From Moniliella sp. 'wahieum' (taxonomy: Eukaryota): a stretch of 54,339 nt of DNA. The first letter of the stretch is position 1; every line of letters begins with the position of its first letter. Below, in pieces: positions 1 to 46,800 of the stretch. A program made the position numbers and the translations under genes. A model generated the notes under the pieces. It worked only from the letters and a program-made list of their open reading frames with translations, had not been told where the DNA came from and ran no database searches. Where the stretch lies: positions 124,001-178,339 of the forward strand of contig RSEE01000125.1 in the NCBI GenBank assembly GCA_003971905.1, written 5' to 3'.

Positions 1-3000
1 TCCCGCGGGGCGGTGGGCGGGGAGCAAGTCGGCTTCGGAGCGAGCGCGTAGGCGGCGCGGATGGACGCTCTGAACAAGGGTGAGAATGGTATTCTGTACC
101 ACCTTGAGCGCCTTGGCCGGGGGCAAGGGACCTTCCTCGGTCGCATGTGCCGGGACAAAGATCGCGGGCACGGCCAGGTCGGAAGAGGCAAAGAGCTGAG
201 CGATCCGTTGGGCACTAGCTTCTTGCGGTACCTCCTTGGCTGCAGGCGGCGACTCGGCCGACCCAATCCGTTCCATAACATGCGCCAGGTGCTCTTTCCA
301 CGTCTCGTGGTTCGCACGCGCCATGTTGTGAAACACTTGCAGATCTGCGCGTGCGCAAGGACAAAGGTCAGTAGTCTGGAGCAAGACGCGCGGTCCAAGC
401 CCCCGAGAGGAGGAGGAACCGAGAACCAAAACCAAAACCAAAAAGAAGACGTACCAGGAAACGCGCCTGCCAACGCTTCAAAGTGCGGCACGGCAAACAC
501 CTCCATAAAGTAAATCTGGCCGCGGGCCAGGGCAAACTCCTCGGGCAATTGACGGAGGGGAACCGAGTGGGCGGCGTACAAAGTGCCAGACATGTGGTGT
601 CCGCCGCCGCCACCGGCACGACACACGCTTGAGCGGCACTGCATCGTCGTAGCGAGCTTTCGGACGATGGACAGTCCGATTCGTCCCCTTCCACCTCGGC
701 GTCCGACTCGTCGGTTGAGCAAGAGGGACTGTCGACCTGCGCTGGCGCCGCACCCACCGTGACGGGCAACGCGCAGCCCTGCTCCAAATCACGTTGTCGT
801 GCCCACTCCCTCCGAAGCGCAACGGACCAGTGCCGGCCGATCGGAAGGCGGCGCAGCGGATTGCATATGTCACTCGACTTGAGCAAGGCGCAGCACAGAA
901 GCGTGACCTGGTCCGTGGTAAAGCACGCATCATGGCACCTGTCTCGTGGACCGAGGTGGTAGCCTCCGTCAGGTGCGGCGTCAAACTCTGCAGAGCAGAG
1001 AGGTAGTTAAAGTGCAAGGCCATGTCGGTGGAGAGGATGCACATGTGCATCAGTTCGCCCAGCCGCGTGCGCTTTTGCGCACGTCGGGGCGCACAGGGCA
1101 GAACCAAGTTGGCCAACACGTCGCTCGGCGGCGGAGGCTCGTCGTACGCGCACGCCTCAAAAATAAGAGTGTCGAGACCGTAGGCAGCATGCACTCCTCC
1201 AGCATCAGCGCGTGGTAGTTTTCCAACGGCGACTTGCCCTCGAACGCTTGGCTCAGGGGGGCCTTGCCGTTGACGAGGAATTTATTGGATAAGCCCATGT
1301 GGCCTGCATCGTGTCCAATCGCGGCAAAGAGAACCATCAGCACATCCGCTGGCTCCAGCGGGGAGCGGACAATGTGGGCAGCGGCCTGGGCCCACTGCCG
1401 GCCCATGTGGGGCACTCGCTCAATCAAGAACTGCGTGGGCGGTATGGCGCCAATCTGGACAAGAAAGTAGTAGGATGCCTGGAACACGTCAACAGCATGC
1501 ACAAAATTGTGGTAGGCCACCGCGGGGCGTAGAGGCGTCGGATCGAGTGCAAAAAGCCCGAGATGGAGGAAAGCGTGATGCCCAAGTGATCGCCCAAGGT
1601 CCGATAAGGTGGCAGGGGCGTGTCGAGGGGCGTATCGAGTCGCGGTTCCCTTCCACCGAGCGAGGCGAGATATCGTTCGGCTTCGGCTACGCTGGCAGGC
1701 ATGTAGAATGCCGTTTCAAACACCAGCTCGCACAGCATGGCCAATTCGTTCTCTTCCAACCCATGTGGCGCAAATTCCCAGGAATTGGTTAGCGCCGCCA
1801 TCTCGACCCGCGACCGAGGCATCCGCGTTCTCCGTGGCCGAGATCGGCTGCGATGCGTGCGGGGCCTAGGCCCCGTAGAATCATTACTAAATGCACGCGT
1901 CATCGCTCGTTCGGTGGGGCAGGTGAGGGTGGCGGTGGAGCTACGATGCGAGGGAGCCGAGGGAGCAGCATTAGGGATGATGGGGGGCTCCCCAACGGCA
2001 TCCAGTACCACTTCTTCTTCCTCGCCCGAAGGCGCGGCCGGCGCATCGGCCAGAGGCAATGTGTTGTGGGTAGGAGAAGGGCTGTAGGAAGCCGGCTTGG
2101 AAAAGGAGTAGGCCTCCAACCCTTTGCGCAGCTGTTCCATTGTCCCATCTGCCTCGGAGCCATGGGGGACACGTGCTGGGCCCAGCTGGGTCCCCGGTCG
2201 GAAGCGCCGCATCCGCCGTCGCTGGCCGCGGCAATTTCCTTCTTCTCCTTCTCAGCGGCGTGGAAGCAACAGGGCGTAAGCGATGCCCATCCGGCTCGGC
2301 GGGAATGCCACCTGGATCAGAAGGGGTAATGGACTGGGATGGCTCCTGGCTCGGTCCAGCTGCCAAGTCGGCCGTGCTGCCCTGCGCACCAAAGGAGAGC
2401 GGGTGGTTTCTGGCTCCGCCATACTCGTACTGGAACGCCGACAAGAGCTGGTTGATGGCAGTGGTGGCGATGGGTGCGGTGACCTGGCGCCGCCCCCGGC
2501 CTGAGGCCGGGCTGGTGGGCGTCTCGACGGCTTGAGGCGAGGTGCGGGGGGTAGTGGTGCGGCCTGCGGCCGGGACAAGAGGCGAGGCACTGGCGCGGCT
2601 GGTGGGGCGGGAGGGGATGGGGTGGGGCACTGCGTCGACTTCAACGGGCCAGGGGTGGGTGGAGACATGGCCACGAAAACTGCTTCCGCGCGAGCAGGCG
2701 GAAGGGGTGGAAGCAGAAGAGTGCAGCAGGCGCTCGTCCGAGCGAGGGTGACTGCGCAGCCTGGGCATGGGCATCGGGCTGGGGGGGTCGTCGCCAGCGG
2801 GGGAGAGACGGACGGTGCCGGCGGAGCCTACGCTGGCTGCACTGCCGCGCCGGTCGTCGAGATCGATGCCAAAGCCGAGCACGGCGGACGGGGGGCGCGT
2901 CGGGGTCGCCATGGGGGCGAGGCGGGTCTTGCGAGTCGGGGGCAGGGGGGCGGGAGCATGCTTCCATGGCCGAGGCAGCCAGCGGGAGGGGCGGAAGATG

Positions 3001-3412
3001 CGGGAGCGCAGGGGCGGGGCGCTGGGTGGCTGGGCCTGGGCCTGGGCCTGGGCCTGGGCGTGGGGCGGAGGCGGAGGCAGCGGCTGGGGCGGAGGGGAGC
3101 GGGAGCGGGAGCGGGAGGCGGAGAAGAAGGAGGGCTGGGAGGGCTTGTCGTCGCCGTGGCTGTCGCGGGTGGCGAGGCTGGTGGGAGCGCTCTCCTCGCT
3201 GGACCAAGAGCCGTGGTGCTCGGAGCCGTCGTGGCTGCTGGGGGCGGAGGAGGAGCGCGGGAGCGGGCATCGAGCAGGGCGGCGTCCCAGGCGGCGGCAG
3301 TGGCGGCGGCGGGGGGCGGGGGCTGGCGGTGGGGCTGGCGGCTGCGGTGGGTGCTGCGGCTGGTGCGGATGCTGGCGCGGGGGCTGGGCCTGGGCACGAC
3401 GGGCACCGACAT
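1..3412 (-). CDS. PDE2: Class I (HD-type) cAMP phosphodiesterase, high-affinity Pde2-like; long low-complexity N-terminus; 3' end outside window; several apparent frameshifts
   Basis: PDEase_I motifs occur in successive minus-strand frames: YHNFVHAVDVFQA, AAIGHDAGHMGLSN, SPLENYHA, ILSTDMALHF, LLKSSDICNP and GQIYF (invariant Gln). Intron 454..345 (GTACGT...TACTGAC...CAG). The start at ATG 3412 (MSVPVVPRPSP) is tentative. Confidence 0.9.
3031..3065 (+). repeat. (TGGGCC)n hexamer repeat within the PDE N-terminal coding region
   Basis: tgggcc x4 + tgggcg + tgggg. Encodes an AQ-like (or PG-like) dipeptide repeat on the minus strand and has G-quadruplex-like G tracts on the plus strand. Confidence 0.85.
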
Positions 3413-3599
3413 GGCGGGGCGGGGGAGGTGGTAGTCGGGGCGGAGGGGGGGCAGATGGACCGCACACGGCACGGCAAGCAGCACCCAAGGAAGCGAGAAG
3501 GCCAGCGTGCGGCTGCTTCGCTGTGCTGTGGGTGCGGTGGGTGCTGGGCCAGGTGACTTGGTGACGAGCCCTGGTGATGCGACGCTTCAACTGCACGCG

Positions 3600-3847
3600 T
3601 GACTAGTGAGCAATGGCCACTGACCGGTGACTGGGCCACCGCGCCTTGGCCGCAGCGACAGTGACATGTGACATGTGACGAGCGATGCATGATGCCGGCC
3701 ACACACCCGCAATGCATGACCAGAGCGGGCTGCGACCAACCACGCGTCGCCACCCCCTCGGCCTCACCCTTCGCCTTGCATGTTCAGCTGCCGCCTGCCC
3801 GCTGCCCGCTGCGCGTTGAACGTTGAACGTTGAACGTTGAACGTTGA
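3600..3847. repeat. Cluster of quasi-palindromic heptamer arrays upstream of PDE
   Basis: TGA-CTAG-TGA 3600-3609; TGA-CCGG-TGA 3621-3630; (TGACATG)2TGA 3662-3678; (TGAACGT)4TGA 3817-3847. Confidence 0.9.
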
Positions 3848-4829
3848 GAGCGGCGCCCCGCCCGGTCGGGTGTTGGGGCCAACCCCTCTCGCCCCGTGGC
3901 TGGCGCCAGGCACCCCCTCCACACTCGTCCCCTGCCCCGGCCCACCCACTGCCCCTGTGCCTGCCGCGACTCACACCGTTGGTCTGCCCGCTGCCTGCAG
4001 GCAGTGGATGGTGTGCTGGCTCTCCCCGCACACGCACTGGCCCTGTGCCCCGCCCTGGCCAACCTACCCCCCGTCCTCTGCCGTCCTGCCGCAGCCCTTT
4101 TTTCCCCTGGCCAGCCAGACTGGGGCCGCCCGGCGCAACCCCACTCGCCTCAAATTCAAATTTCAAGCCGCTGCGCTGGCCTGCTTGCACTAGTAACCGA
4201 TAACCCCGCCGACGCTGTGGCCAGCCCCGGCCAGGCTGGGCTGCCAGTTTTGTTTGGCCTCTTCTCCACCCCTCGGTTCAAACAGTTTTCTCAAATCTCT
4301 GTCTGTCTCCGCATCCAAGTTCAAACCCTGCCGCGGGCCTCGCCCCACCGCCTTGCAACACTCAGCCTGCGTACTCACCCGCTCCATCATCCGTACCGCA
4401 GTATAGATTCTTCAAGCTTCACATCTTCCAGCTCTCTGGCCATTCATGCGCACCATGCCCATCCCCTCGGTCTCGAGCTTCACATCGCCTGTGGCTGGCT
4501 TGTCCATCCCGCATCCATCCGACGGCCATGTCTGCCCACACCCCACCACGCCCCCACCCTTGGCCTTCGCTTACCATCGTCATGCATCATGCACCACTAG
4601 CATCGCTGGCCAGTGGCTAGTGGTCATCGGTCACCGGTCTCATAGTCCCAAGAAGATAGGTATCTGACACTGCCCCCCCCACACCCAGCCGAGGGGGGCA
4701 CACCAAGGCACACACGCCACACGGGTCGCACTGCCCCCCGCCCCATTCCCTGGTGCGGGCTTGAAGCTTGAGAGTTGGGATACATGGCACTCCGTACGTA
4801 CTCAGCACGATGCTAAAAGCGCGCCACAC

Positions 4830-8347: not shown

Positions 8348-8445
8348 ACCGTTACCTAATCGACAGAAATGCGTCGGGCTAATGCATCGCATCAGTTTTA
8401 GTCCCAACGCGACGCCGACGACACCCACCGACAACGAACACCGCC

Positions 8446-8756
8446 ATGTCCAGCAAACAGAAGGTGCTGGTGCAGCCCATCAACGTCATCTTCCGCCACC
8501 TGCAGGAGCAATCCCCCGTAAGGCTTTGGCTATACGACAACACCGCCTCCCGTATCGAGGGCAAAATTGCTGGGTTCGACGAGTTTATGAACGTGGTCCT
8601 CACCGACGCCTACGAAGTTCAAGTCAGTTCGGGCGAGCGTCAGCGTTTGGGTATGTTCTGTCTACTCTCCTTCGGGTTCGGATGCTGACACACAGAACAG
8701 GACGCATTCTTCTGAAAGGAAGCAACATTACCCTCATCCAACCTCTCAACGCATGA
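8446..8756 (+). CDS. SME1: Small nuclear ribonucleoprotein SmE
   Basis: VQPINVIFRHLQ...RIEGKIAGFDEFMNVVLTDAYEV...LGRILLKGSNITLIQ. Intron 8651..8700 (GTATGT...GCTGAC...AG) joins the exons in frame. Confidence 0.97.
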
Positions 8757-8964
8757 TGAGTCCCTGTCTTGTCCCCGCCGGTTTTGCAGCCCCGGCGAGG
8801 AGGTGAGCCGCTTGTCGTTCGCTCGAGACGAAGGATGGGGCGCTCAGTACTCCCTCTGGTGGCGGTATATTCTTCGCCCCCCCAAAAGACATATGTACTT
8901 GTAACTCTTCCGCCCCTCCTGCTTCTTCTGCCTGCTTTCTCGCTCTTCAAAGATAGTCGATCCA

Positions 8965-9633
8965 TTAGACGTCTGCCAGAGGCAGCGCGATACTGCCTGA
9001 ACGAGCCTGCTCGCCATATGCCAACAATCCTACATGAGGCATCACGTTCCACCGTAATACCAACGTTGTCTCGTTCACACCCCTGCATGTAGGTCAGCAT
9101 TGCAGTCGTACGCCACCCGAGAACCAAACAGCAGGATTGGAAAACGTACTTGAACGTGCGTCCTACCTCGCGCAACAGGTACTTGGCCTTGACGTGGTCC
9201 AGCACAAGATGCGCATCTTGACGGTCCTGCACAATGTGGTCCACAGCACTACTTCGTTCGACCTCCGCACCTGGCCAGGGGGAAGCGCCTTGACATCATT
9301 GGGCCTTGGCCGCAGCACACGCGTCTTTTTCTTGGGTGGCATCTCGTACACCGCACTCAGCGTGACAAACACTTGCTTCGTATTCCAGTTGAACAAGCCG
9401 CGCAAGTCGGCATCCAGCCCAAACTCGAGCGTTGCCACGTCTTGGAGCGGGCGGTGAGCATACCCATACCCCGGGCGCGCACGGAAGACTTGCAGGTCCC
9501 GCACCTCGACCGATCCGGGCAAGGGCGCGTAGCCAAATGGATAGGCCACCAGTGCGACAGCCCCCATCAAGAGAAAGAGCACGGTTGTTGCAAAGGAGGT
9601 GATGCTGTTGAAGCGCGATAATGTGCTGTGCAT
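8965..9633 (-). CDS. SPC3: Signal peptidase complex subunit SPC3 (SPC22/23)
   Basis: MHSTLSRFN, an N-terminal TM segment, DADLRGLFNWNTKQVFV, NEVVLW(D)HIV and LVLRWNVMPHVGLL. Intron 9149..9083; one apparent frameshift near 9241. Confidence 0.95.
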
Positions 9634-11509
9634 CCCCGCGATCATCCTCGTCGAAAGCGGTAGGCAGATGGGAGGCGTAGCGAGGTGGGGGACGACGGCC
9701 GACAGCCAGCCAGCATCTGGGCGGCTACGTGGCATAGTTTCAAAATTGCACGTCCCCCGTTGCATCGGACCTATTCGCAACTGCCCGCCATGCGCCCCTA
9801 CCACTGTTAGTACTTCCTCTCAACCCTCTGGGATGAGGAACTGAGTGCTCATAACGCGCACAGGCGTCAAGCGCTTGGTGACGAGGACACACACGACCTT
9901 CGTACTTTGTTGCAGTACGCGGCTGGTATGGCCTGCTCACATACCTCATGGCTCCTCGGCCTCTCCAGCCGCAAAAGAAATCCTGCTTTTACGTCGCGCC
10001 ATTGTCCCGCGCCTGGACACCCCAGGCGGCGTGGCGGGTAGGCTACGAGAGAAAGTAAGCCAGTGTAAGGCGTCGCGTACTTGTTACATAACATGGCAAC
10101 ACACTGGCTGCCAACCCGGCGACCAGTTGGGACAGCTGCATTGCCCTCACCTCCTTCCTCACACTTCCAAGCGTCCACCGGGCACACATTTGTCCTTCAT
10201 ACCGATGCTTGGCCAACGATGCATCCGTAGTCACGGGAGAGGAGCACATCCTTTGTCTCACGCTGGACCTCGACCGCTCGGTCAGAGGACACGACGCTGC
10301 CGCCGAACCTGTTGCCCGAAGGACCGAAGGGGGGAAAGGCGAAGCAGCCTGTGTTGCCAGCGGTCTGTGTGGATCCGTGACACGCATGGGTTGCGCTCAA
10401 AACCTGGGTGGGGATGTACGGCCGCAGATCGTACTAATCCGCCGTTTGAGGTGGAAGAGAGTCTACCGGGAGTGGTGAAGCCGGCCTCCGACCTACAATC
10501 GCACGCCGGGGGGTGGCCTTGGACCGGACACCTTTTTTGAAACGCGGTGTATCGTCGCAGGCCCCGCCACCGCCACTACCTTCTTGGCCAGCCCAGGCAA
10601 GATACTGACCATCCGAGGTGTGCTTTCGAACCACCCACCACCTCCATGGCCCCCTTGGCAACGACGGGAAACAAACTATCCATCACAGTCATCATGGCTT
10701 CTCCCGGGATACCCGGGATGTCCGGGATATGTTCGGCGAGACGAGAGACGGCCGTTGGCGGCGGATGGGTTGTGCTCTGAGGCATATAAGCCGACGGATG
10801 CAGCTCGGGGGCCGGTAAACAGCTAATGACTACCAAAACACCGCGTGGCCCTCTCTGGCGCCCACCCAAAGTGCACACGCTGTGTTTCCGCAAGTCCATG
10901 CAACCTGACGTGCTTGACGCCGCCTGGCGCTGACGCACCCGAGCGATGATCTAGGGTGGTCAAGCTCTTCTATCCGGTCTCGTATGCCCATCACGCACCA
11001 TCCCCCGAGAGGCAGAGGAGAAAGAGGGAAGACACCGGCCTCATCGGCCACATATACATCCCAGGGGCCGGGAGCGGAGATGATTGATTTGATCTGAGAT
11101 CTGAGAGGACAGTGAGGTTGATGAGGATCGCTGAGGCAGGTGGGGCCTGGTGGGACATGGTGGGACAGGTACGCGAGGTATGCGGCGGAGAGAGACTGCG
11201 ACGTGGGCAAGGCGGGGGGTCCCTATGAACTAGTAACTACTAGGCGTGATAACCGAGTGGGAACCGCTCCGGTGGCAGGCACGGGGGGACAGTGCGGCTA
11301 CTGTCGGCCGGCAAATTCGAGTGGTGTCCTGGCTGCTACTGGCTGAGCGCGTTTTGGGGGCGGCGGCAGCGTGGACGTGGGCGCTGCGGGCTGAGCTCCG
11401 GCAAAGGGCCATCTGCTTTGGTGCTTGCAGGCTGTACCATAAGTATCCTCCCTTTTCCCCTTCCCCCTTTCCCCCAGCACCCCCTCTCCCTCCTCATCTG
11501 CTGTCCGAC

Positions 11510-12914
11510 ATGGTCAAAGTCGCTCTGCTGTGCGTTGCTTTCCGATGCAACCCTCTCCCCCCACCACACAGGGAGAGAGGACTGTTGATTGGGGCGGAGT
11601 ATATACTGACTGCCGACCTTCTCTTGCTTTGGTCTCGCTGCGACCCAGTGGCGCGTCCGGCAACGTGGGCCAGCCGTTGGCGCTGCTGCTGAAGCAATCA
11701 CCCCACGTCTCTGAGTTGGCTCTCTACAGCCGCAACCACACCCCCGGCATTGCTGCTGATCTGTCGCATGTGCCGAGCAAAGCGCGTGTCACCGCCTTTC
11801 TGCCGACCGGCCATGGTGGGGGCTGCCTGCTGCTCTCGCAGATGCTGGGGTGGTGGTCATCTGTGCTAGTGCCGCCTTCCGGCCAGGGATGGAACGGGAA
11901 AGTCTGTTCCAGCTGAACGCAGCCATTATGGTCGAGATGGCAGAGGCGATTGCACGCTATGCGCCCCCGACCGCTCTGGTTGCCGTTGTTTCCAACCCTG
12001 TCAACTCGCTCGTCCCCATCGTAGCCGGCGTGCTGACCGCCCGAGGAAGATACGACCCGCAACGGTACGCATTTCCCTCCCGCACCCCCTCCCTCCCCCC
12101 GCGCGCGCCTATCTCTTTCTCGCTCTCTGTCCTATTAGGCTACACACCATTGTCAAGCATGCTAATGCTTTGCATCAATCAGCTTGTTTGGTGTCACCAC
12201 CCTCGATCTGTTCCGGGCCGAGACGTTCGTTGCGTCCGAAATGGACGACCCAGAGGTAGCTACTCGGGTCAAAGTCCCTGTTGTCGGGGGCCATTCGGGC
12301 AACACGATTGTGCCGTTGCTCTCGCTCTGCCAGCCAGCACTTCCGCCCTTGCCTCCAGAGGAGGAAACCCAACGGTACGTGATGCTCACCCACCGTATCC
12401 AGACAGCGGGAACCGAGGTGGTACAGGCCAAAGCGGCGGCAGCAGGGGGTTCAGCTACCCTCTCCATGGCCGCTGCCGCGGCCCGGTTGATCTTTGCTCT
12501 GATCCAGGCTCGTGCCGCGTCGCCTTCTTCTCCCTTTACAGAAGAAGGGTATGCAATGGTCGATCTCTGTCCGATCCAGACGGAGGGGACGAGGTACGCC
12601 ACCGTCTGTTTTCCCATTTGCCTCGTGCCGTACGGGAACGGATGAGGTTCTGTGCAGTGCCAATCTTACTTGATTCGGGAATTGGGAGCGTTCAGCGTAT
12701 CCTTCCGCTTCCCGATGCTTCCACGCTGCATCCGACCGAGCGGGACGCTTTGGCCCTTGCTGCGCCACGCTTGGTCCAAGATATGGATCTCGCCACACAG
12801 TGGCTTGCGTCCGCCTCCCTTTCGTCCCCGATGGGCGGGGTGGGGGTGGAATCAGCTGCGCTGGCCCACATGGCATCCGCCCCCGATTCAGCCAAGTGCG
12901 CTGTGACCGTATAG
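11510..12914 (+). CDS. Malate dehydrogenase-family (mitochondrial/glyoxysomal MDH-type fold) paralog with altered cofactor and substrate residues; no N-terminal presequence
   Basis: [61 protein letters not shown] and [13 protein letters not shown]...GSATLSMA. Introns 11530..11648 and 12065..12182; apparent frameshifts at about 11820 (G run) and about 12565. Confidence 0.93.
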
Positions 12915-13157
12915 AACAGTGTTCACTTGCCGTGCCACGGATCTGAGGAGGGACGATGGAGGGGCATGTAACGGGCTATGCGAAGGATGTTTCCTGATTT
13001 CAAGTAGAGCATGGATGGTGAGGCCAAGATAGATAAAGGCAACGTGAAAACAAAATACGACGGACGACTGGACGAGGGGATGCAGTATGGAGAAGGAGCG
13101 AAAGAAGAATGGATGAATGGAACGACGAGAGGAGATGAGATGAGGCCCGAGGAGCGG

Positions 13158-14347
13158 TCAGGTACGCTTTTTTGCTTCATCGATAGAATAGGACCCCGCT
13201 CCCATGTTGACTACGAGCAACAAGCCGCCAACGATGCTCAACGTTTGAAAGAAATCGTAGCGGAGGAAATCACGGGACGGATGGCTGGAATGTACGCTCC
13301 AAAAGTTGTTGACGGCCAAGTTGAAAAATGAGAGAAGAAGGATGAGGAAAGATGCAGACCAGCGCGCTTTGAAGCCAACTGCAACCATGACGCATGCGAC
13401 CAAGCCAAGCGGGGCAGTAAGAATGCGCAACAGCGTCCAGTTGCCGTGGCAGACAAAGCCGACAAACAAGCCGATCAGCAGGACACGGCCCGCGAGCTGC
13501 AGGTAGATGTTCTTGCTTGGTTCGGAAAGGGTGGGTAGACCAGCCAAGAGCGGGTGCCGGGATTTCTTGGAGAGCGAGTCGGAAAGACACATCAGCAACC
13601 CCCCTCCAACAGAAAAGTTGCGCAGGAAAAAATTCCAGTCCAACAGCACGCCGTACCCGATACCTTGCAAGAAGATGATGCCCCAAAGTGAACTGACAGC
13701 CGAGACGGGCACGCGGCGTGCAATGAGCAGGATAGATGCACAGACCATCACCACCACATTAACCGAGAGGAAGACATGGCCAATCCCCCAGTACATGTGT
13801 CGTTCTTGGGTGAGATAGTGAACCTGGTCAGGCCATTGGCACACGATCCGAACCGCATCTTCCAAAAAAGTCGCCACGATCAAAAAACGGCCGAGGGCCG
13901 GATGTAGGGACGTAGGGACTGAGTGTAGGCCTCGATCATGTCCTCAGTTCCGGATGACCAACGACGGAGCTGGTGAGGTAGACATGCTCCGAGGTAGCTG
14001 CGAGGTTGACGTGAACCCAAATTCAGATGATGGGGCAAAGCCGCCCGAATACGAGGCAGCGGGCGCATGCGAGAACGAATGTGGCGAGGGTGAGCATATG
14101 TGTATGCGTATGCGTTTCCATATCCGTTTTGGGATCCCAAGCCGGGCCCAGCTCCTGACCCACTGTACGACATGGGCCGGGCATGGTTGGGCCCGACGCG
14201 CCCGGATCGCGGGTGGGCGGCGTAGCTTCCGTGTGGGGCGTGCTGGGACCCAATTCTACCTGGCAAGGGACGTGTACTGACCGAGGCGTAGTGGCGGTGG
14301 CCAGGTCGCGCGCTGCGCCAGCTCCGCCGTACGTAGGCGGAGTACAT
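13158..14347 (-). CDS. ERV29: ER-derived vesicle cargo receptor Erv29/SURF4
   Basis: (GRF)LIVATFLEDAVRI, FFLRNFSVGGGLL, LAGRVLLI, DFLRYDFFQTLSIVGGLLL and a C-terminal dilysine motif SIDEAKKRT. Frameshift at about 13900; start codon uncertain. Confidence 0.93.
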
Positions 14348-21799: not shown

Positions 21800-21930
21800 G
21801 ACAGTTGAGGTGGTGGCGCAGGCAACCCCACCGCGTGCTGAAGCGGTCGCCACCCGCCCTTACTATTGGGATCGCCGCCGCTGATTAATGATTCCGCCGC
21901 GGAAACCGATCCCCACACTTGGTCTCTGAT

Positions 21931-21998
21931 ACTACCACTACCACTGCCACTAACACTACCACTACCACTGTCACTACCACCACCACTACCACTACCAC
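21931..21998 (+). repeat. (ACTACC)n hexamer microsatellite in the short divergent promoter between the small TM gene and VAM6
   Basis: About 11 imperfect ACTACC units. Confidence 0.9.
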
Positions 21999-22045
21999 CC
22001 ACCGCCACCCCCTCCACCGTTCCCCTGTCATCCCCCGACATTGGC

Positions 22046-25000
22046 ATGATTGACGTGCTGTCGGCGACGGCAGTGGCCACCGCTCTGCATGAGACGCCGA
22101 CTGCGCTGCTTGCCCATGGGGACCGCCTCTATGTCGGGACTGCCTCGGGCTCCTTGCTGGTGTATGTGCCATCGGCGTCCGGCGAGACGATGCAGTTGTC
22201 CACCCAGCGGCGCGCACTCTCCCCGCGCGCCCGGCCAATCGACGCCCTCGCGATCGCTAAGGAGATTGACTGCCTCGTCGTCCTTTCGGATGCCAGCGTT
22301 TCGCTCTGTGTCCTGAGCGACCTTACCCTCGTTCCGCCCAGCCCACTTCCGCAAACACGCGGTGCTCTTGCCGTAGCTGTCGATACCTCGGTGCAGCCGC
22401 GGCGCCGACCTTCGCCTGACCTTCCGCGCTCATCTTCCGCCTGGCGCGTGGGGGACGACTCGGCCCGGTTGGCTCGGTCTTCCCGTTCTCCCCTGCAGGC
22501 TGTGGCCGGGCTGCGTGGCATGGAGACGCTGGCAGCCGAGAAAGAAGCGGAGCGGAAAGCGCTACGCGCGCGCATGCGCCACGACGAGGCATGCCGTCTC
22601 AGTGCTTCGGTAGCCGATGGGGACGACCCAGGGGCTTCGGAGCTGACCCTGGTCACTACCCTTGTGGTGGGGGTTCGGCGCAAACTCCTGTTTTTCCGCT
22701 GGGTCGATGGTCAATTTTGGGACACGCGCGAAGTCCCTCTTGCACATTCGCCGCGGTCCATTGTGCTTCCCACACCCACCACCCTCGCAGCTGCCTACAG
22801 CCTGACCGAATACACTCTTCTCGACCTTCCTCTTGCTTCTGAAAGTTCCACCTCCTCTCATCATACTGGCCAAGACGCCCAAGCCACCGATCCCTTCGCC
22901 ATTCCACCCTCCAGCGCTTCTGGCCCCTTGGTAGACTCGGCCTCCTGGCCTGCGCCTCACGACATCACCCTGCCCCCACCCGCAGAGACGGTGCCTACAG
23001 CCTCCCCTGATGGGTACGCAGGGTTTGGTGCGGCCTTGGGCCAGTTGCTCGTCCGCGCTGGGGCGAAGCAGCGCGACCCGCGCCTGGTCGTCGTGGCGGA
23101 CGACAAGTTGCTCTTCTGTCGCCGGGAGACTGGCACCTTCCTCTCCCTTGCACCTGGGAGGAAAATGGGAATGGAAAAGACGACCTGCTCTGGCCTACCG
23201 TACCCGAGACGGTCGTCGCCCTGAAGCCTTACATTCTCACCCTTTTGCCCCCTCATGGTCACGAAGCCACGGCCTCCTTGGTATCTCGGTGGGGCAGCGG
23301 AGGCGGTACCTCCCACCCCACCCATCCTGCTGGCGTCCAACTCACCTCACCTCAGACGGGGGCAGTGGTACAGGAACTGGCCTTGTCGATTGACCAAGCC
23401 GAGGCTGGCACGACGACGCTCCTCCCGCTTGCTACTGTCAACAGCAGTGCGACCAAAGCGCAGGCGTATGTGGTAGCTGTGTCTTCGGAGAGCGCGGCAG
23501 CGGAAAAGGTGGGCGCGACGATTTTCCGACTGGACTTGGTCTCGTGGGCCGAGCAGGCGGATGCGTTGGTGCGGTCGGGGGAGTACGTGGAAGCGCTGGC
23601 CCTGCTTGACAGTCTCGATCCCGCCCGTCTGCCTGATCGAGAGGAACGACGACGGCTAGTACGCACCCTGCGGGCGGTCACTCTCTTCTTGACCACCGCT
23701 ATGACGAGGCGCTATCAGACTTTATTGCGTTGGAAACCACACCTATTGTGCTGGCATTGTACCCTCCCTCGATCGCTGGCGACCTAGCCTTGCCCCCTGC
23801 CGAGTGGCTCTCCGCCTTTGGTGCACCTACCACGCCCGCCAAATACTTGGCCCGTCGTACCTCCCGGCCCCCTCGCGCGATCTCAGCACCGACCCGACCG
23901 GATCGCCATTGGCTTCGCCGTCCAGCACCCTTCCCGCTCGCTCACAGAGCATCCGACTCTCCCACTCTTTGGTCCCGGCGGACCGTACCAGCCTGGCCTC
24001 GGTCGGCAGTGGTCGAGGGTCCCTTGGGCCTGGAAGCCCCGTTGTGGCAGATGGGATGGAGGAAGGGGAGCCAGAACGAGAACGAGCACGCGCCCGGCCG
24101 CGTCGGCGTCCAAACGTGCTGCCAAGCAGCTCGACGCTCTGCAGAAGGACAAACGCCATTCACTCGATGCGCTAGGCAAGTTCCTAGCTGACCGAAGGAG
24201 GATTTACCAGTCGCTGTTGGAACGACACCCCGAGTCCCATGTGGCCCAGACCAAGTCGCAACAACATACCGATGCCTTAACTTTACGTGCCATCCCTTCT
24301 GTCCCTCTACACGCACTTTCCCTCGAGCAGCTGGCGGATGTGGCGCGGGTGGTGGACACGGCTCTGCTCAAAACCTTTCTCGAGACGAAACCGGGATTGG
24401 TGGGCTCGTTGTGTCGGTTGGAAAATTGGTGCGAGGTAGATGAGGTGGAGCAGCTCTTGTCGTCGGCAGGCAAATCGTCCGAGCTGATTGCGCTGTATGG
24501 CGGGAAGAATATGCATGCCAAGGCGCTTCAGCTGCTGCGGCAGTTTGGGGAACAAGTCACCATCGAGGAAGAGGCCGATAAGGAGGAACGGTTGGGTCCG
24601 ACGATCCGCTATCTCCAAAACCTCGACCCTAAGCATCTTCCTGTCATTTTGGAGGCGTCCCATTGGGTCTTGGAGGAAGATCCGACAATGGGACTGGAAA
24701 TCTTTACTGCCGATACGGGCAAGGTGGGCTCGTTCCGCAAAGCCTCCGTCACGGCCGATCTTCAGCAATTTGACCCCGCCTTGGCCATCCGGTACCTCGA
24801 AACCATTGTGGCTTGCGGGGAACAGGACCCAGCTCCCACGAGAAACTGATCTTTCTCTCACTAGAGCAAGCGGGCAGTATGAAGGTGGGATCCGACGAGC
24901 GCAGTGCCCTTCTCACCAAACTGCTCTTGTTTCTCAGGTCTTCTCATAGCTACCATGCCTCCCACGTTCTCGCCCGCCTGCCTGTTGCAGGCGCCCATGA

Positions 25001-32793: not shown

Positions 32794-34863
32794 ATGTCGA
32801 CGCCAACGGACGAAGGTGCGTCTCCGTGTTCTGGCTTCGCCCGTTGCTAGGCTAATTCTTCCCCCTCTGTCTGCATTCAGTCCACGATGCCGACTCGGTG
32901 ATGCCCCCCCACGAAACTGAGCGCAGCGGCACCAGCTCGGACAGCCCAGGCGCCGCCACCCACCTGCTTTCGCTCACCGCCGCTGAGCGCCTGGACCGGA
33001 TCCTTTATCCGCGTGACTGCTTCACCTCGGACAAGATTTACTGGGCCGACCTACCGTCCCGCCGCCGCATGCGCTGGGTCAATGCTCAGAACAACGCTGA
33101 GGCCAAGCGCGAAATTGGCGTCATCTGGCGCATGTTCAAGAACGACCCCCTTTCGCCACTCGGTGCATACTTTCAAAACTATGCCATCACCGGCCTTGGG
33201 CTCTTTGTCGAGGGCTACACTCTGTTTTCTGTCGGCAATCTCCAGCCGCTCTTCAAGATCGTCTGGCCCGAGTGCTGGAAGACATTCAAGGTCTGCAACA
33301 AAACCTGGACCGAGGCTACCGACTATCTTCAGATCATTGGCATTGTCCTCGGCCAGTTCTGTGTCGGTATCGAGTCTGACTGGATTGGTCGTCGGTTCGG
33401 CATGGTACAGAATGCACTGATCATGACGCTAGGCAGTATCATGCTGACCGCCATGTGGGGTACATCCCTCAACGGCTGGGTCATCTGCTATGCTTGGTGC
33501 CAGTTCGTCTACGGCTTTGGCGTTGGTGGAGAATATCCCATCGTCGGTACCACCTCTATGGAAAGTGGTAAGGGGATGGGTGCGGATGAGCGGGATCGCA
33601 TGCATCGTGGTCGCCGCGTGCTCCTTTCCTTCCTTATGCAAGGATGGGGACAGGTGGCGAACCAGGGGCTGCTCATCATCCTCATGCTCATCTTCCACAA
33701 CCGCTTGGGCGACACTGATTACAACAAAACCTCGACCCAGTGGACGTTCCGTGTTTCGTTTGGCATCATTGCTGCCTTTACCCTCTTCCTTGCCTACCTT
33801 CGTTTCTACCGTATCAAGGGCGTCGACGATGCGATCAAGGCCGCCAAGGCGCGGGCGGGACGACGTCAGGGTATGATCTGGTTTCCCTTAAGCTTGCCAT
33901 GGGCCATTATTGGCATCGCCTCATTGCGACTTGCCTTGGTTGGGGCGCCAACGATTTCGCCTTTTACGGCAACAAGACGTTTAGCGGTGTCTTTATCCAG
34001 ATCATCACCGCATCTGCGTCGGTTCGCCTGACTTGGCTCTACAACCTTATCAACGTGGGCGTCTCCTTGGCTGGATACTATTTGGCGGCACTGCTGATTG
34101 ACAACAAAAACTATGGGCGCAAGTGGATGCAAGCCAACGGGTTCATGATGCTCTTCATCCTCTTCCTCATTGCCGCTGCAGCGTACGAGCCGCTAACCAA
34201 GCAGGCGCAGGGGTCAAAGGATTTATGGCACTCTACTTCCTAATTGGGGTCTTCAACCAGCTCGGCAGCAACACCACCACCTTCCTCATTGCTGGTGAGT
34301 CCTACCCAGCCTCCATTCGCGCCACCGCCCATGGCATGTCCGCTGCCTGTGGCAAAATGGGCGCCTTGATTCCCGCCGCGCTCTACCCGCACATTGGTGA
34401 CCGGGCCAAGTTCTGGCTCGGGATGGGGCTAGCTGCGATGGGGTGGGTGGTCACCCTCATCTTTGTCCCAGACACGTCCGGGTTGGACCTGCGGGAGCTG
34501 GAGCGGTACTGGTCTTATGTTCGGGACGGCCGAGCGAACGATTACCACGGTGTGGCGGTGCACCCGCGCCACCTGAGCTTGTTTGAACGTGTGGTCCTCC
34601 ACCGCCATCGTACTTACAACCCCGAGCTGGATCGTCAAGCAAAGATGGACGAGATGCGCACCGCGTATGACGCTATGCGCGCCGTCAACGGGGTTAAGTT
34701 TGAGCCGTCGGACATGAGCGCCGAGCAACGTGAGTTCCTCGAGATGGAGCTTACCAGCTTCTTCAACTCGGACCGCAAACTGCGCACCCACGATGTGCTT
34801 GCCTCCCACGAAGCTGCCACCCACCCATCCAAGTTGGCAGCGCTCGAAAAGAAGTTGCATTGA
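32794..34863 (+). CDS. MFS phosphate:H+ symporter (PHS) family transporter, Pho84/Git1-related
   Basis: GLGLFVEGYTLF, SDWIGRR, GFGVGGEYP, MQGWGQ, WGANDFAFYG and NTTTFLIAGESYPASIRATAHGMSAACGKMGA. Intron 32816..32880; frameshifts at about 33855 and 34208. Confidence 0.88.
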
Positions 34864-40892: not shown

Positions 40893-43800
40893 TTAAAATG
40901 TTTGCCACCCGCCCGAATCGTGGGTGGCCTCAATCTTGCGCGCGCCACCAAGTTGGGCAGGCCATGGAGCAGCCACTGCCGCCGCAGCTCGTCGTAGCGT
41001 TCCCGGTGGAGATGCTGCGGGCGTCCCTTGCACAGCCCAATGTCCACCTCGCCATGCGAATCGAGGTAGGGCGAAAAGGTAAACGTGCCGTGTTCCTCGC
41101 ACAGGACCAGAATCACATTCGTCTTGAGTTTGAAGAACAGGCCCACCGACCCACACTCGTCCCGGTGCACGTTGCACTCGCCTCGCCCTTCGTCCGACTG
41201 GCAGCAAAACGACTGGTAGCATACCACCTCGCCACACAGCAGACATACCGCCGGGTCGGCAGGCACGTCGCCGCACCGCGCACACGGCCGCAGCTGCGTT
41301 TCCTGCAGCAACGTCGCCATGTCCGTCGGCAGGTCCACCAGCTCGTACACACCCGGGTGCTCGAGGAGCAGGATGGGCTGCTGCGGCATTCTTTCGCTCG
41401 GCAGTTGGATAGGCAAAGGCTGGAAGAGCGAAACAAAGGGCACATACGCATGCTTGATCCAGCCATCAATGATGCCCACCAAACTGGTCTGTCGACCCGA
41501 GCGCGCGGGCAGTGCCGAACTGGGCAACTCAATGTCGAGGTGGTGCATCAGACGAAGGTACTCGGATTGGGATGCCTCTGGATCGGTCGAGCCAGAATCC
41601 CGAACGGGTCCGGGACCAAATACGGCAGAACGTAGCAGCGCGGCGCGGCGCAAGAAGGGCAAAGTGTGGGTGCAGAGCAACTTGGCCAACGTATCGTCCT
41701 CCAACCGGTCCACACCGAGGGAAATGTTGCCGCGTTCGTAGCCGACGAGGCCGATGATGTTGGCCACGGTCCAGCGTACGTCGGGGAAGACCTGACGTGC
41801 GGTTTGGAGGTCGAAGGAGTCAATCCCTGCCTCGCCACGACGGAAGAGGGAACGGTAGGCGTCCCCCGAGGGCGGCCAGAGACTGGGCTGAGCCAAGCCA
41901 AAGACGAGCTGGACAAGGGCTACATAGAACATGAGGGAAATGATGTGGTCCAGCTCGGCGGGCATCACAGCAGCTGCTTCAATCAGAATGCTAACCGGGT
42001 CCCGTAGGATGAGAGGCGACCGCACGGCCTCATCCACCGTCCAATGGGGCAAAAGACGCTTGAGTAACCCTTGACGGATCACGTCCGCTCCGCCCTCGAC
42101 GGAAAGGTGCATTCGTAACCGCAAAGTGTGCAGCAAGCCCCGTAAAAGGTGCGAGGTAGCATCGTTCAGCGTCTCGACCACCGTCGTCCTCGTTGCCCGT
42201 CCACGTGAAGCAACTTCCAACATGGACAAGGTGTATCCCACCACGTCTTGCGGTAGGTAGATCTTTCGACTGGGAAGAGCCAGGATGGTACGTTCCTGCA
42301 TCCGACCCATCATGCCTTTCATCTCCTCGGCCTGCAGGTGGACCACTTTCTGAAACCGCTCCAAGGTGCCATCCATATCCTCCTCCCACAGCCCCACCTT
42401 ACCCACCGACGCAAGCGTGGGGACCGCAGGGGTTTCCGAGGCATACCAGGGGGTAAACGTGCCCGACCCACTTGATTCCTGGACATTGCCCTCACCCGCC
42501 AGCGTAGCACATCAATGTTGACCTTGCGAATCCAGTCCGGTAGGGATCGCCGGTCAGGCGTGCACGCAGGTTCCACGAGCGAGGCGGACCGATGCGAGTC
42601 GGGCAGAGGGAGGTGTGTTGCCCAACGCCTTGCACAGCGGACACTACCTCCAGCCGGTCCACATTTTCGGGAAGGCGCCTACCGTGTCCTGTGGCGCGGG
42701 CTTGGGCGTACGAGGCAAAGCACACGCTGTGCATCATGTGTCCACAGGTACTTGCGTACAGTCCAGGCCGATTGAACGAAGGAGGGAAAGCGCCTTTTGG
42801 ACGGAAAGGGTCGGGGTGGTCCCAGGTTGAGAAGTTGGACGGGGGGCCTCGTACGCGAGGAACGCCTTTCTCCCCTGCCGGCCCATCCCCACGGTCAAGC
42901 GTAAGTGGGGCAGCTACACTCTGCGCCAGACCTTCGAGATCCGTGTTGGGAAGGATGCGCATGGTGCGGCTCTGCTGGATATGAACCAACATCCCAAACG
43001 GTTCGGCCGGTGTCAGCCCCTCTTGACATAAGATGCACGAGCCATGTTTCAGCGTCACCTCATCGTCCGTCTGCAAGAGTTCAGGACCCTTGGCCTCGAC
43101 GGGTGGCACGTCCTCCGTGGGGGTGGCGGAAGGCCCCGTTTTCCTCGTCCAAGGTCCGCAACAAATTCTTCTGCTGCTGTGAAAACTTCTTCATAATCGC
43201 TGCTTGGCGCGAGCGGGCAGCCGCCCGGCGGGCCTCCAAGCGCTTCGCCTCCTTATCCTCTTCACTAGGGGTGCACGCAACGTCTTGCCCTCCGAATGGA
43301 AAATGTGAGTGAGACGGTCGAGACCACCATGGTCGTGAGCGAGTTGGACTGTCTGCTCCAAAACAAAGTTGATCTTGCCTCGAACGCTTGATGCTCGCTC
43401 GCTGTTCTCTAGTCGGCACAGGAGCAGGAGCAAACTTGCTCCACTCGCAAGAGGGTCCATCAGCTTCTGCACAAACACAGGCCCTGTGTCACCATACCCG
43501 CAGAAACGAGTTGGAGTAACGAATCCAGTAGCGACTCTGGCACGTCCTCCTCCAATTTGTTCACAGCCAACAGGGTCCCCTCTAACGCTAGTAGCAAACT
43601 GTTCGAGACGAAAATGGCGTGGAAGGCAGGTTGGTCAAAGAGGGTGCCCGGGACGATTTTGGGCGTACGCGCGGCCCAGACAGACAAGGGATTGGCGCCA
43701 TCGTCGAGTTTGCCGCCGTGAGAGTTGGCAGCGACAAAACGAGCAAGCAGAATTTCTTCGACTTTCTCACGTTGGTTGCGCGTGTAGTGGCGACAGTAAG

Positions 43801-46800
43801 GGTGCACCTCCTTGTAGCACCCATCCTTTAGTGCATAGTGCCCTTGTCCTGTCGCGCCATCCGGGGGATGGAAGTCACTCACATCAGCCAGCACGCGGTC
43901 AAAGCACGCTGCCTCCCCGAGCTCGCGTGAGACCTGGTCTTTGAGGTCGGTAAAGGTAGTGGGACCAAAGGCAAGGAAATGGACAATCTCGTATCGCACC
44001 ACCTCCTCCATGGACCAACCGCCACAGAGGGACGTGTCCATAAGCAGGTGTACCAGCAACAGAAGCGCCTCGTCCAGCATTGCTACCTTTTCCCCGCTCT
44101 CCTCTCCGTTCCTGAGAAGAGGAAGCACACCGAACCGATCCAGTAGAGTGACGAACCAGAGCTCGAGGGCAACAGGAAGCCAACCTGCAAAAGATACACA
44201 TCGTGATCGTAAAGGATATCGCGCATCTGGCTTCCGCGATAATGATGCGCTTGCGAACGGAGCGCAAACCCATTTCGCACCCACATCCCTGAACGGACCT
44301 GGGCCAGCTTGACTGCAACCCTAAGCGGGATCTCGAGGGAAGCCAAAGCATACGCCTCTCCGCCCTCGTGAGCGGGGATGAGACTTTGTCGCAAAGCGGT
44401 GAGGGAGAGGGCATGCGTGTGGCGTAGCAGCTCGGCCAGGGCCCAGTGCAGAGGGTGATGAAATGAGACGGGTTGGGAGGCCACATCAAAAGCAATCACA
44501 TGGAACGTTTCCTTTCCGAGGAAAACCGAGTGCCACTGCCACGGCCCATACGGCTTCACGGCCTGCGCCCAGTCCCACCCACCTGGGCGGCCCGGTAGGC
44601 ACATCTGGATGACACTCTGAACAGCATTTTGGAGCTGGTCAGATGAGGCGAATCGGAACGCTTCTCCGATCAGTTTGGTCATCCGACCCAAGTGCGACGA
44701 GATGTGAAAGAGAGCAATCCACTCGTCCGACTCGTATTCGAGATGCTGTCCTGTCTGACGTGTGTCAGGCGCGATTCCTTCAAAATAGGCAAGGAACGTG
44801 AGAAGGACAGTGAGGCGGTGCGGGTCTTGGGCCAGGAGACGCTGTACCCCCTCGGCACTGAGGATATAGCGCAAGTCATAGAATAGGTGGTAGCAACGCT
44901 CCGATGGAAATAGTGCCGTCATCGTCGTTTCCCTTGGTGGAAGGATCACGTTGGTTTGACCTGGCTTGAGCACCAGCAGCGCCCGAAGAAGATCAGCAAT
45001 CTTGGCAAGAAAGTTTTTGCCCGGACCAGATAGGTGGCCACCGAGGGAACACTGAATACCTGCACCGTCATGCTCGAAATGGATTGGTCCTCCTCCCTGT
45101 CCCGGAAGATGAACGTCTCGACCATACTTGCATACATAGCGGAAAAGCGGAGAGCTACACACACGTCAGCCACTGGATAAAAGGCAAGAGGAAAGGGGGA
45201 CATACCAATCTGTTTCTTGGTATCCTTAAACCCAATGCAAAGCAAAAGCAGGTCTTGCAATTCGATGCGAGCCTGCTTCGGCAACTTGTTTTCCAAAAGC
45301 AGGAGCCCATCAAGTTTGACCAAGTCGCTTGGATCAAAGAATTGCGGGGACATCTGTGGGTGAGAGATCGAGTAGAGGTGTTGCCACGGCTGCATTAGCT
45401 GATTCGTCACAAGTGTTCTCAGGACCATGGGTGCCGGAATCATGCCAGGGAGAAAGAGGGCTGCGCTACACATGTCCTTCAAATGCCGCCAGAGCAGGAA
45501 CGCGACATCTTCACCGAAAACGTCATATGCCGGCCGGATAGAGACGCCCAAATCGATGCGGGAAAAACCGCAAGCTGCAAGTAGTAGGTCAGGGACGGAG
45601 GTGGAAGTAACCAGCGCATCTCGTCCATACCGATCCACACGCTCCGCCACGCCTTTTGCCTCGCTGGTCGACCTACCCATGGTATGGGAGACGGTACGAA
45701 TGACGGTGGGGAAATCATGGTTCTCGTCGTTCCACAACAAAAGAGTAAAGAAACGGCTTTTCTCCTCGCCCCAATTCGCAGAGAAGCAGCAGAGGTAGCT
45801 TCTTCCTCCAAATCCCTAATTCCCTGGGTCGCCCTCATACGGGGAAGGCGTCCAAGGGACTGCTGCAGCAAGACCAGGGCTTCGTACGGGTCGGTACGCA
45901 CCTCCCGTGTTTGCGCCTCAGCGTCGGCCACCCATTCGGGTTCAACCCCCCACTCGGGATCGACTACCCATTCCGGGTCGGCTTGGTCTTCAAAACCCTC
46001 CCACTCCATATCGCTAGCGTCCGGAGAGATGTCAAGGGAATCTCTCATGTTGTAGAAGAAGTCGGACCCGCTGCGAGGAGGCGAGAGCGCAGGATCCGGG
46101 TCTGGGGCCGGGGAAGGGGAAGGGGCACTGGCTTGGGCGGGGGGTTGGGAGGGGAGCGCAGTCCGTTCCACTGCCTCGTTCCCAGCAGGGTTGGTAAACG
46201 ACAGAGCCGGAACTGGGTCAAAGGGATCAAGGCTGGGCATGCGGGACAGGACCCGGACGGCGCGCACTTGGGGCAAGTCAAGGGTGGTTGGGGCGTGTTC
46301 GAGAGTGTCGAGAATCAGGTCGAGCATGGCGGCAATATGAGTCTGGAATGCAGCAAGAACGGGGCGGGCATTCCCTGGAGAAGATCGGAGAGGTCGCGTT
46401 CCTGGGCTTCTGGTGGGTCGGCCTGTTCAGGAGAGGGGGAATGGTAGGTACAGCCAACAGGGAGTTTCCACGCCTCGGCGTCCGCCACAATCACAACAGC
46501 CATCACCGCCCTGGGAGATGGAGAAGACAATGTCGTGGCCCACGTGGTTGCTGGCCGAAAAGCAGGGAGCACATTGCACACATGTGTCATCGTGGCCGCA
46601 GTCGCGGCAGCGGTAGAAGGCTTCGCCCCGGCGAAAAATGTGGCCACAGGGGGTGCCCTTGCGGTCAGGGCTGTACTCAGCGCCGAGCGGAACACCGGCG
46701 GGCGCAACCGAGGCAGCGACGGCCTTCTGGGCCCCCTCTAAGCTCCATCCATGGGCGGAAAGCATGTCAAGGCAGGCGTCGGCCGAGGCTGGCGCAGCGG

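Follow-up and report, generated by a model that had tools for sequence, protein, structure and literature searches.

Analysis of a 54,339-nucleotide stretch of contig RSEE01000125.1 of Moniliella sp. 'wahieum' (positions 124,001 to 178,339 of the forward strand; hereafter the window, in whose own numbering all positions are given) revealed one locus resembling malate dehydrogenases (MDHs), a gene on the plus strand spanning 11510-12914. In its predicted protein the Arg at position 102 (lactate dehydrogenase, LDH, numbering) and the Asp that selects NAD are both replaced, and the catalytic set is kept; because of this combination, both substrate and cofactor preference would be expected to differ from those of MDHs. 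The reading that we favour, at about even chances, is that the gene encodes a functional, neofunctionalised and probably NADPH-using 2-oxoacid reductase, whose catalytic competence, substrate class and cofactor preference are predicted here from the sequence. An earlier note on this DNA had singled out the same two changes, with no mention of the three introns of the gene or of a frame break upstream of the Phe codon.

The change that bears on the substrate lies in the mobile substrate loop (11859-11909). The loop stretch, encoded in frame 11301 at 11850-11921, includes the codon TTC for Phe (11877-11879), followed by CGG for Arg (11880-11882). Comparing the translation of the second piece of exon 2 (exon 2b) with all PDB chains by phmmer (HMMER) showed that the loop aligns gap-free to the solved plastidial and glyoxysomal MDHs 8xku, 8j5d, 1smk and 1sev. 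Since there is no gap, Phe falls opposite the first loop Arg (E. coli R81, LDH position 102) and the following Arg opposite Lys. The protein thereby lacks the specificity Arg of mitochondrial-type MDHs at position 102, as the earlier note had claimed. That note had also named an arrangement that would overturn its claim, with the Arg of FRPG itself at position 102; sequence alignment to the solved structures puts this Arg at 103. The loop is as long as in MDHs, with nothing inserted between VVVI and PGM. It also keeps its second Arg (11895-11897), equivalent to E. coli Arg87 at position 109, where PGMER stands opposite PGMTR. We also considered that the loop might be an artefact of compensating indels and rejected this, the other frames of 11859-11900 giving a stop or an unrelated peptide.

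We then asked how often such a loop occurs in the family. Searches with exon 3 retrieved 270 MDH-family proteins, and in 154 of them the loop could be read by pattern (30 further retrieved proteins with NPVN but an unreadable loop were left out of this count). Positions 102-103 are Arg-Lys in 152 of these 154 loops, and the two exceptions are P0242, with Gln-Lys, and P0219, which is a mis-joined prediction. Judged by this sample, the loop change of the window's protein is far outside normal family variation. P0242 (493 aa) is of the same MDH type; its loop reads AGIAQKPGMTR, with Gln at 102 as in LDHs, and it keeps the NAD Asp and carries a long low-complexity insertion.

The neighbouring Arg bears on the possibility that the protein is still an MDH, possibly one using NADP(H), in which a slight shift in the register of the loop, with substrate specificity largely kept, brings Arg103 of FRPG to the C4 carboxylate. 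A positive charge is indeed retained at the adjacent position, and the loop is mobile, its activity being tuned by nearby residues: in E. coli MDH, A80P raises kcat/KM of the R81Q mutant (PMC11461317), and in apicomplexan LDH another loop residue is described as filling the space of residue 102 (PMC9299796). Against this stand the MDH-like length of the loop and its gapless alignment, and none of the 154 readable loops has a non-Arg residue followed by Arg. Lys103 is invariant in 120 full-length canonical MDHs, so that Arg103 looks like a conservative replacement of this Lys, the simplest explanation, rather than a displaced Arg102. A bulky Phe would, moreover, be expected to occupy the place where the carboxylate binds. 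Taken with these points, a retained MDH function appears quite unlikely.

The second change affects the cofactor site. At the end of beta2, where MDHs that use NAD have Asp and a hydrophobic residue, the gene encodes Ser-Arg (AGC CGC, 11728-11733). The N-terminal piece aligns by HMMER without gaps to human and pig mitochondrial MDH (4wle, 2dfd, 1mld), with LYSRNHTPG opposite LYDIAHTPG, so that Ser-Arg stands opposite Asp-Ile and the NAD-selecting Asp of mitochondrial-type MDHs is absent. This bears out the further claim that a cofactor change accompanies the loop change. Among the retrieved MDHs, the Asp at the end of beta2 is present in all 134 whose site could be read. The dinucleotide-binding motif (GASGNVG, 11650-11670) departs from the family as well, with Asn and Val where the consensus has Gly and Ile; these two replacements, G12N and I13V, hit columns that are 99-100% conserved in the 120 canonical MDHs.

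Unlike these two sites, the catalytic centre is that of an MDH. NPVN, whose Asn contacts substrate and cofactor, lies at 11994-12005. In exon 3, TLDLFR provides the catalytic Asp (12205-12207) and the substrate Arg that binds C1 (12214-12216), GGHSG provides the catalytic His (12292-12294), and both motifs align in register with 6itl and 2dfd. The earlier description of the second loop Arg, NPVN, TLDLFR and GGHSG as intact thus held throughout, all four being in register with solved MDHs. The domain content agrees: Ldh_1_N (PF00056) was found in the open reading frames (ORFs) of exon 2a (3e-07, 31.0 bits) and exon 2b (6.6e-17, 62.3 bits; cut-off 27), and Ldh_1_C (PF02866) in that of exon 3 (4e-21, 76.2 bits; cut-off 22.6), so that both Pfam domains of the superfamily that unites L-LDH and L-MDH score above their gathering thresholds.

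To place these residues among the others, the conceptual protein (371 residues, with X at the frame break) was aligned with the 120 canonical MDHs. Of 85 columns conserved in at least 95% of the latter, 71 are kept and 14 are changed, and neither the His-Asp dyad nor the C1-binding Arg is among the changed ones. The replacements are concentrated in two loops, that of the cofactor (G12N, I13V, D34S) and that of the substrate (G81S, R84F, K85R, D92S). This pattern is also relevant to the idea of a non-catalytic or regulatory protein of MDH fold, kept for binding and not for catalysis, perhaps as the partner in a dimer with a canonical MDH. Such a protein might well show a changed glycine-rich loop, a changed cofactor Asp and extreme divergence, but the retention of all catalytic residues would be unexpected in a pseudoenzyme, and the housekeeping neighbourhood of the gene provides no link to a partner; we regard this explanation as very unlikely.

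A favoured mechanism can be outlined from these residues. Hydride transfer and binding of the 2-oxoacid carboxylate would be served by the retained His-Asp dyad, C1-binding Arg, second loop Arg and NPVN Asn. Where MDHs hold the C4 carboxylate of oxaloacetate with a loop Arg, this protein has Phe and lacks the positive charge, and where they hold the adenosine ribose of NAD with an Asp, it has Ser-Arg. The protein would then most likely be an L-2-hydroxyacid dehydrogenase that prefers NADPH and a substrate without a second carboxylate, having instead a small or a hydrophobic or aromatic side chain. In E. coli MDH, as reviewed in PMC11461317, Arg81 binds the C4 carboxylate of oxaloacetate and Arg87 stabilises the transition state, R81Q moves the preference towards pyruvate with a fall in activity, and residues 34-38 set the choice of cofactor, an added Arg favouring the phosphate of NADPH.

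The gene model rests on a three-frame translation of 11300-13100 and on tblastn with seven canonical MDHs, in which the pieces of the locus were found spread over different frames. It comprises four exons and three introns. Exon 1 (11510-11529) starts with the ATG and holds six codons (MVKVAL) and two bases of a Leu codon; its boundary, at GTGCGT, is predicted from the sequence and codon phase outside read coverage, as is intron 1 (11530-11648, 119 nt, GTGCGT..CAG). The resulting N-terminus reads MVKVALLGASG and is similar to MVKAVVLGAAGG, with which the fungal MDHs P0057 and P0118 begin, and no mitochondrial presequence is present in it, going by the sequence of exon 1. Exon 2 (11649-12064) contains the N-terminal part of the Rossmann fold, the substrate loop, NPVN and the frame break. 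Intron 2 (12065-12182, 118 nt, GTACGC..CAG), whose junction is found in a contig from a public sequencing run (X1), is followed by exon 3 (12183-12593) with the catalytic Asp, the substrate Arg, the catalytic His and the GGSATLSMA segment. Intron 3 (12594-12646, 53 nt, GTACGC..GAG), outside read coverage, is predicted from phase and from the continuity of the alignment with P0053, the best full-length match among the retrieved proteins. Exon 4 (12647-12914) encodes the C-terminal helices and about 30 residues beyond the usual end of the family, up to a TAG at 12912-12914. No C-terminal peroxisomal signal resembling SKL was seen in the protein.

The frame break, at which the reading frame shifts by one base, falls within five consecutive G (11818-11822) and lies 55 bases upstream of the codon for Phe. 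With all seven canonical MDHs, tblastn alignments run in frame 1 as far as 11817 and continue in frame 3 at 11820, and no query residues are missing. A tiny intron at 11818 was rejected, the alignment being continuous across 11817/11820; the sole GT..AG candidate would remove a beta-strand and a helix. Viewed in isolation, such a break would point to a pseudogene. In order to judge whether it is exceptional in this assembly, we examined the UBR1 gene (40940-45137, minus strand), which is strongly conserved, sharing 77% identity with P0271 and 62% with Tilletiaria anomala. It contains no fewer than four frame switches, with pieces that abut or overlap (45012/44985, 44176 to 44158, 43484/43481 and 42643/42642), and further ones around 42636-42448 and 43302-43117. 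Peptide alignments are continuous over these switches, as in ENVDRLEVV followed by CPLCKALGNT, and leave no room for an intron. The assembly thus appears to contain about one or two indel errors in each kilobase, a rate at which one break in a coding sequence (CDS) of 1.1 kb is expected. Because a conserved neighbour shows frame switches of the same kind, the shift in the G run probably reflects an error of assembly. The same noise calls for caution with other ORF-based readings and gene calls in the window.

We next examined whether the gene shows signs of coding constraint. Over its 370 codons the spliced frame is free of stops, whereas the alternative frames hold 9 and 4, and the phases are consistent at all three introns. 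Changes of a single base create a stop in 2.5% of cases in this CDS, so that already at only 0.25 neutral substitutions per base the probability of finding no stop would be about 1e-3. The GC content by codon position (0.68/0.52/0.65) resembles that of SURF4, UBR1 and Vps39 in the window. Further information came from X1, the only public sequencing run with words in common with the locus (share 0.08; the kind of run is not on record). Its 315-nt contig joins 11979-12063 to 12182-12410 and omits 118 nt with GT..AG ends (cut +1), that is, exactly the predicted intron 2. The contig would be a spliced transcript if the run is RNA, or an intron-less copy in a close relative if it is DNA; as the boundary between exons 2 and 3 holds in either case, it is real. 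All three listed differences of the contig (12020, 12288 and 12336) are at synonymous third positions, which would happen by chance with a P of about 0.02. Short X1 pieces at 11184-11224 and 13239-13284 fit poorly and were not used. Altogether, the gene looks alive and under long-term coding constraint and, on the reading that we favour, would be transcribed.

Comparison with other MDHs places the protein on the mitochondrial, glyoxysomal and E. coli side of the family. For all three exon pieces, the top PDB matches are mitochondrial, glyoxysomal and plastidial NAD-dependent MDHs and those of gamma-proteobacteria, whereas the cytosolic-type structures 1bmd and 9d2f match exon 2b far more weakly (E 1.6e-05 to 9e-05, compared with 1e-15), which does not fit descent from the cytosolic-type clade. 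Relative to the canonical NAD-dependent enzyme of this type (EC 1.1.1.37; 2DFD/4WLE, 1MLD, 1SMK, 1EMD, 6ITL), the fold family and the loop length are the same and the His-Asp pair, the C1-binding Arg, the second loop Arg, NPVN and GSATLSMA are kept, but Phe replaces the Arg of the C4 carboxylate, Ser-Arg replaces Asp-Ile/Val and Asn-Val replaces Gly-Ile. P0053 matches over the full length with only 49% identity and 273 bits, and the other hits show 43-52%. P0053 is a canonical fungal-type MDH of 331 aa that ends in CKL and is 60% identical to a Leucoagaricus MDH, and it may represent the parent-type MDH of the lineage. The local motifs LLLKQSP, DLSHV and ILPL are shared between P0053 and the gene in the window. 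Canonical MDHs are presumably encoded beside this gene in the host genome, as we assume from general fungal biology.

Phylogenetic analyses gave the protein a terminal branch of 2.1-2.4 amino-acid substitutions per site, about ten times the median (0.18-0.23) and the longest or joint-longest in the trees. The careful tree (29 rows) left it in a polytomy with MDHs of animals, chlorophytes and gamma-proteobacteria, the quick tree (23 rows) grouped it with fungi at a support of 61, and P0053 as its sister could not be rejected (p-AU 0.084). We draw no conclusion on the origin of the gene from these trees.

Orthologs were sought in several collections. With exon 3, none was found among the longer lengths of 5.8 billion proteins, where the best match has 62% identity and the protein itself is unlisted, and none by HMMER among 1.84 billion representatives, where the best match scored 87.9 bits at no more than 66% identity and nothing reached E<=1e-30; the nine representative matches that align over the greatest length are canonical where the loop is present. 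With exon 2b, none was found among near lengths (45-144 aa), none of the 18 candidates having scored. In metagenome contigs, exon 2b had no match and exon 3 found 28 loci, all at most 62% identical. This absence is weak evidence, because proteins of 74-236 aa were left unsearched with exon 3 in the 90% collection and clustering at 50% may hide an ortholog behind a representative that is canonical. The lineage is, in addition, poorly sampled, which limits the negative result.

Several of our results weigh against a functional reductase. The assembled sequence does carry a frame break in the gene, the overrun at the C-terminus (12815-12911, plus strand) takes the protein about 30 residues past the end of the family, including that of P0053, the amino-acid composition is skewed, and the searched collections yielded no ortholog that could show selection on Phe102 and Ser34. 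The controls differ at 0-12 of the 85 conserved columns (median 0), so that the 14 changes here exceed every control, in a comparison that flatters the controls since these 120 proteins helped to define the columns. Cofactor binding might be impaired by some of these replacements, such as that of Gly by Asn in the glycine-rich loop or of Gly by Ser before the substrate loop. An open frame also says less here than it would in AT-rich DNA, as the alternative frames of this GC-rich CDS hold only 9 and 4 stops. As to X1, the run is possibly DNA and not RNA, four differences were counted in its contig and three listed, so that the fourth could be non-synonymous, and its contigs leave 11225-11978 uncovered and thus reach neither the loop nor the G run.

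Some of these points would also be expected of a decaying or recently inactivated MDH duplicate, in which constraint was relaxed after duplication, Arg and Asp were lost by drift and the frameshift is real. The break in the assembled sequence, the long terminal branch, the changes in 14 of 85 near-invariant columns, the skewed composition, the C-terminal overrun and the lack of an ortholog in the collections searched all favour it. The length of the branch, however, goes together with a frame free of stops, introns in phase and intact catalytic residues, which argues for long-term constraint; all three listed differences in the near-identical spliced contig are synonymous; and with frame switches of the same kind throughout UBR1 next door, a break is expected from assembly noise. 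As to the C-terminal overrun, no earlier stop occurs there in any frame, and it may be either a genuine extension or one more artefact of an indel. On balance we consider decay unlikely, with the qualification that a divergent enzyme which once worked may have been inactivated very recently.

Returning to a functional 2-oxoacid reductase, the transition from MDH to another substrate is textbook enzyme neofunctionalisation, represented by Apicomplexa, Trichomonas, T. cruzi and one bacterial biosynthetic cluster. The LDH of Trichomonas vaginalis is derived from MDH and lost Arg102 independently, with Leu in its place. To our knowledge, neither this enzyme nor the apicomplexan LDHs change the cofactor Asp. 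The open-access literature that we searched contained no such transition in fungi or in an MDH of mitochondrial/glyoxysomal type. Apicomplexan LDHs likewise arose from a duplicated MDH with independent loss of the Arg102 function (PMC4109310, PMC9299796), and have a loop insertion (PMC4109310). The insertion comprises five residues, with a Trp in the role of residue 102.

The closest analogue for how the window's protein would work is the aromatic L-2-hydroxyacid dehydrogenase of T. cruzi (TcAHADH). This MDH-derived enzyme is reported to have Ala102 and no loop insertion, A102R restoring the reduction of oxaloacetate (PMC9299796), and to be devoid of MDH activity (PMC9299796, PMC11461325). A residue other than Arg at position 102, here Phe, in an unextended loop is common to both proteins. 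They differ in that TcAHADH is a kinetoplastid enzyme of the cytosolic-type clade with Ala102, whereas the window's protein is a basidiomycete one of mitochondrial/glyoxysomal type with Phe, in which the cofactor Asp has changed too. FrsC of Chromobacterium vaccinii, an MDH-derived phenylpyruvate reductase, is described as preferring NADPH (NADH gives 48% relative activity) and as having an Ala-rich catalytic loop with Ser102 and specificity for aromatic 2-oxoacids (PMC9299796). In contrast to the window's protein, with its unextended loop and housekeeping neighbours, FrsC has an extended specificity loop, belongs to a cytosolic-like clade and is encoded in a biosynthetic cluster.

These comparisons lead to a more specific proposal, which we regard as possible but somewhat doubtful: an NADPH-dependent reductase of hydrophobic or aromatic 2-oxoacids (e.g. 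phenylpyruvate or indolepyruvate) may have originated independently in the mitochondrial/glyoxysomal-type MDH clade of a basidiomycete, with the switches of substrate and cofactor combined in one lineage-restricted, extremely fast-evolving gene.

The window itself is GC-rich eukaryotic DNA, and an exon of UBR1 places it in Ustilaginomycotina, the best named match being Tilletiaria anomala, followed by Violaceomyces, species of the Ustilago group and Malassezia. Pfam identified an ORF with an LSM domain (8383-8685, plus strand), the signal-peptidase gene SPC22 (8627-9819, minus strand), SURF4 (13161-13943, minus strand), Vps39 (about 21842-24849), a sugar transporter (32898-34031) and UBR1. The LSM ORF lies tail-to-tail with the 3' end of SPC22 and partly overlaps it, and SPC22 itself occupies two frames, separated either by an intron of about 65 nt or by an indel. 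Among the Pfam-annotated neighbours of the MDH-like gene in the window we saw no biosynthetic cluster; as these are housekeeping genes, the context gives no clue to the substrate. The GC-richest stretch of the window (2001-4000, GC 0.71) has long overlapping ORFs on both strands (1971-3596, minus; 2532-3434, plus; 2641-3753, minus), none of which matches Pfam.

A single sequence from a noisy assembly, for which no ortholog was found, limits the weight of the finding. If the proposed function is correct, the gene would be a compact natural experiment in how few changes are needed to re-aim the MDH fold, since the residues that set both specificities are changed with the length of the loop unaltered, and it may point to an unrecognised keto-acid reduction step in the metabolism of Ustilaginomycotina.

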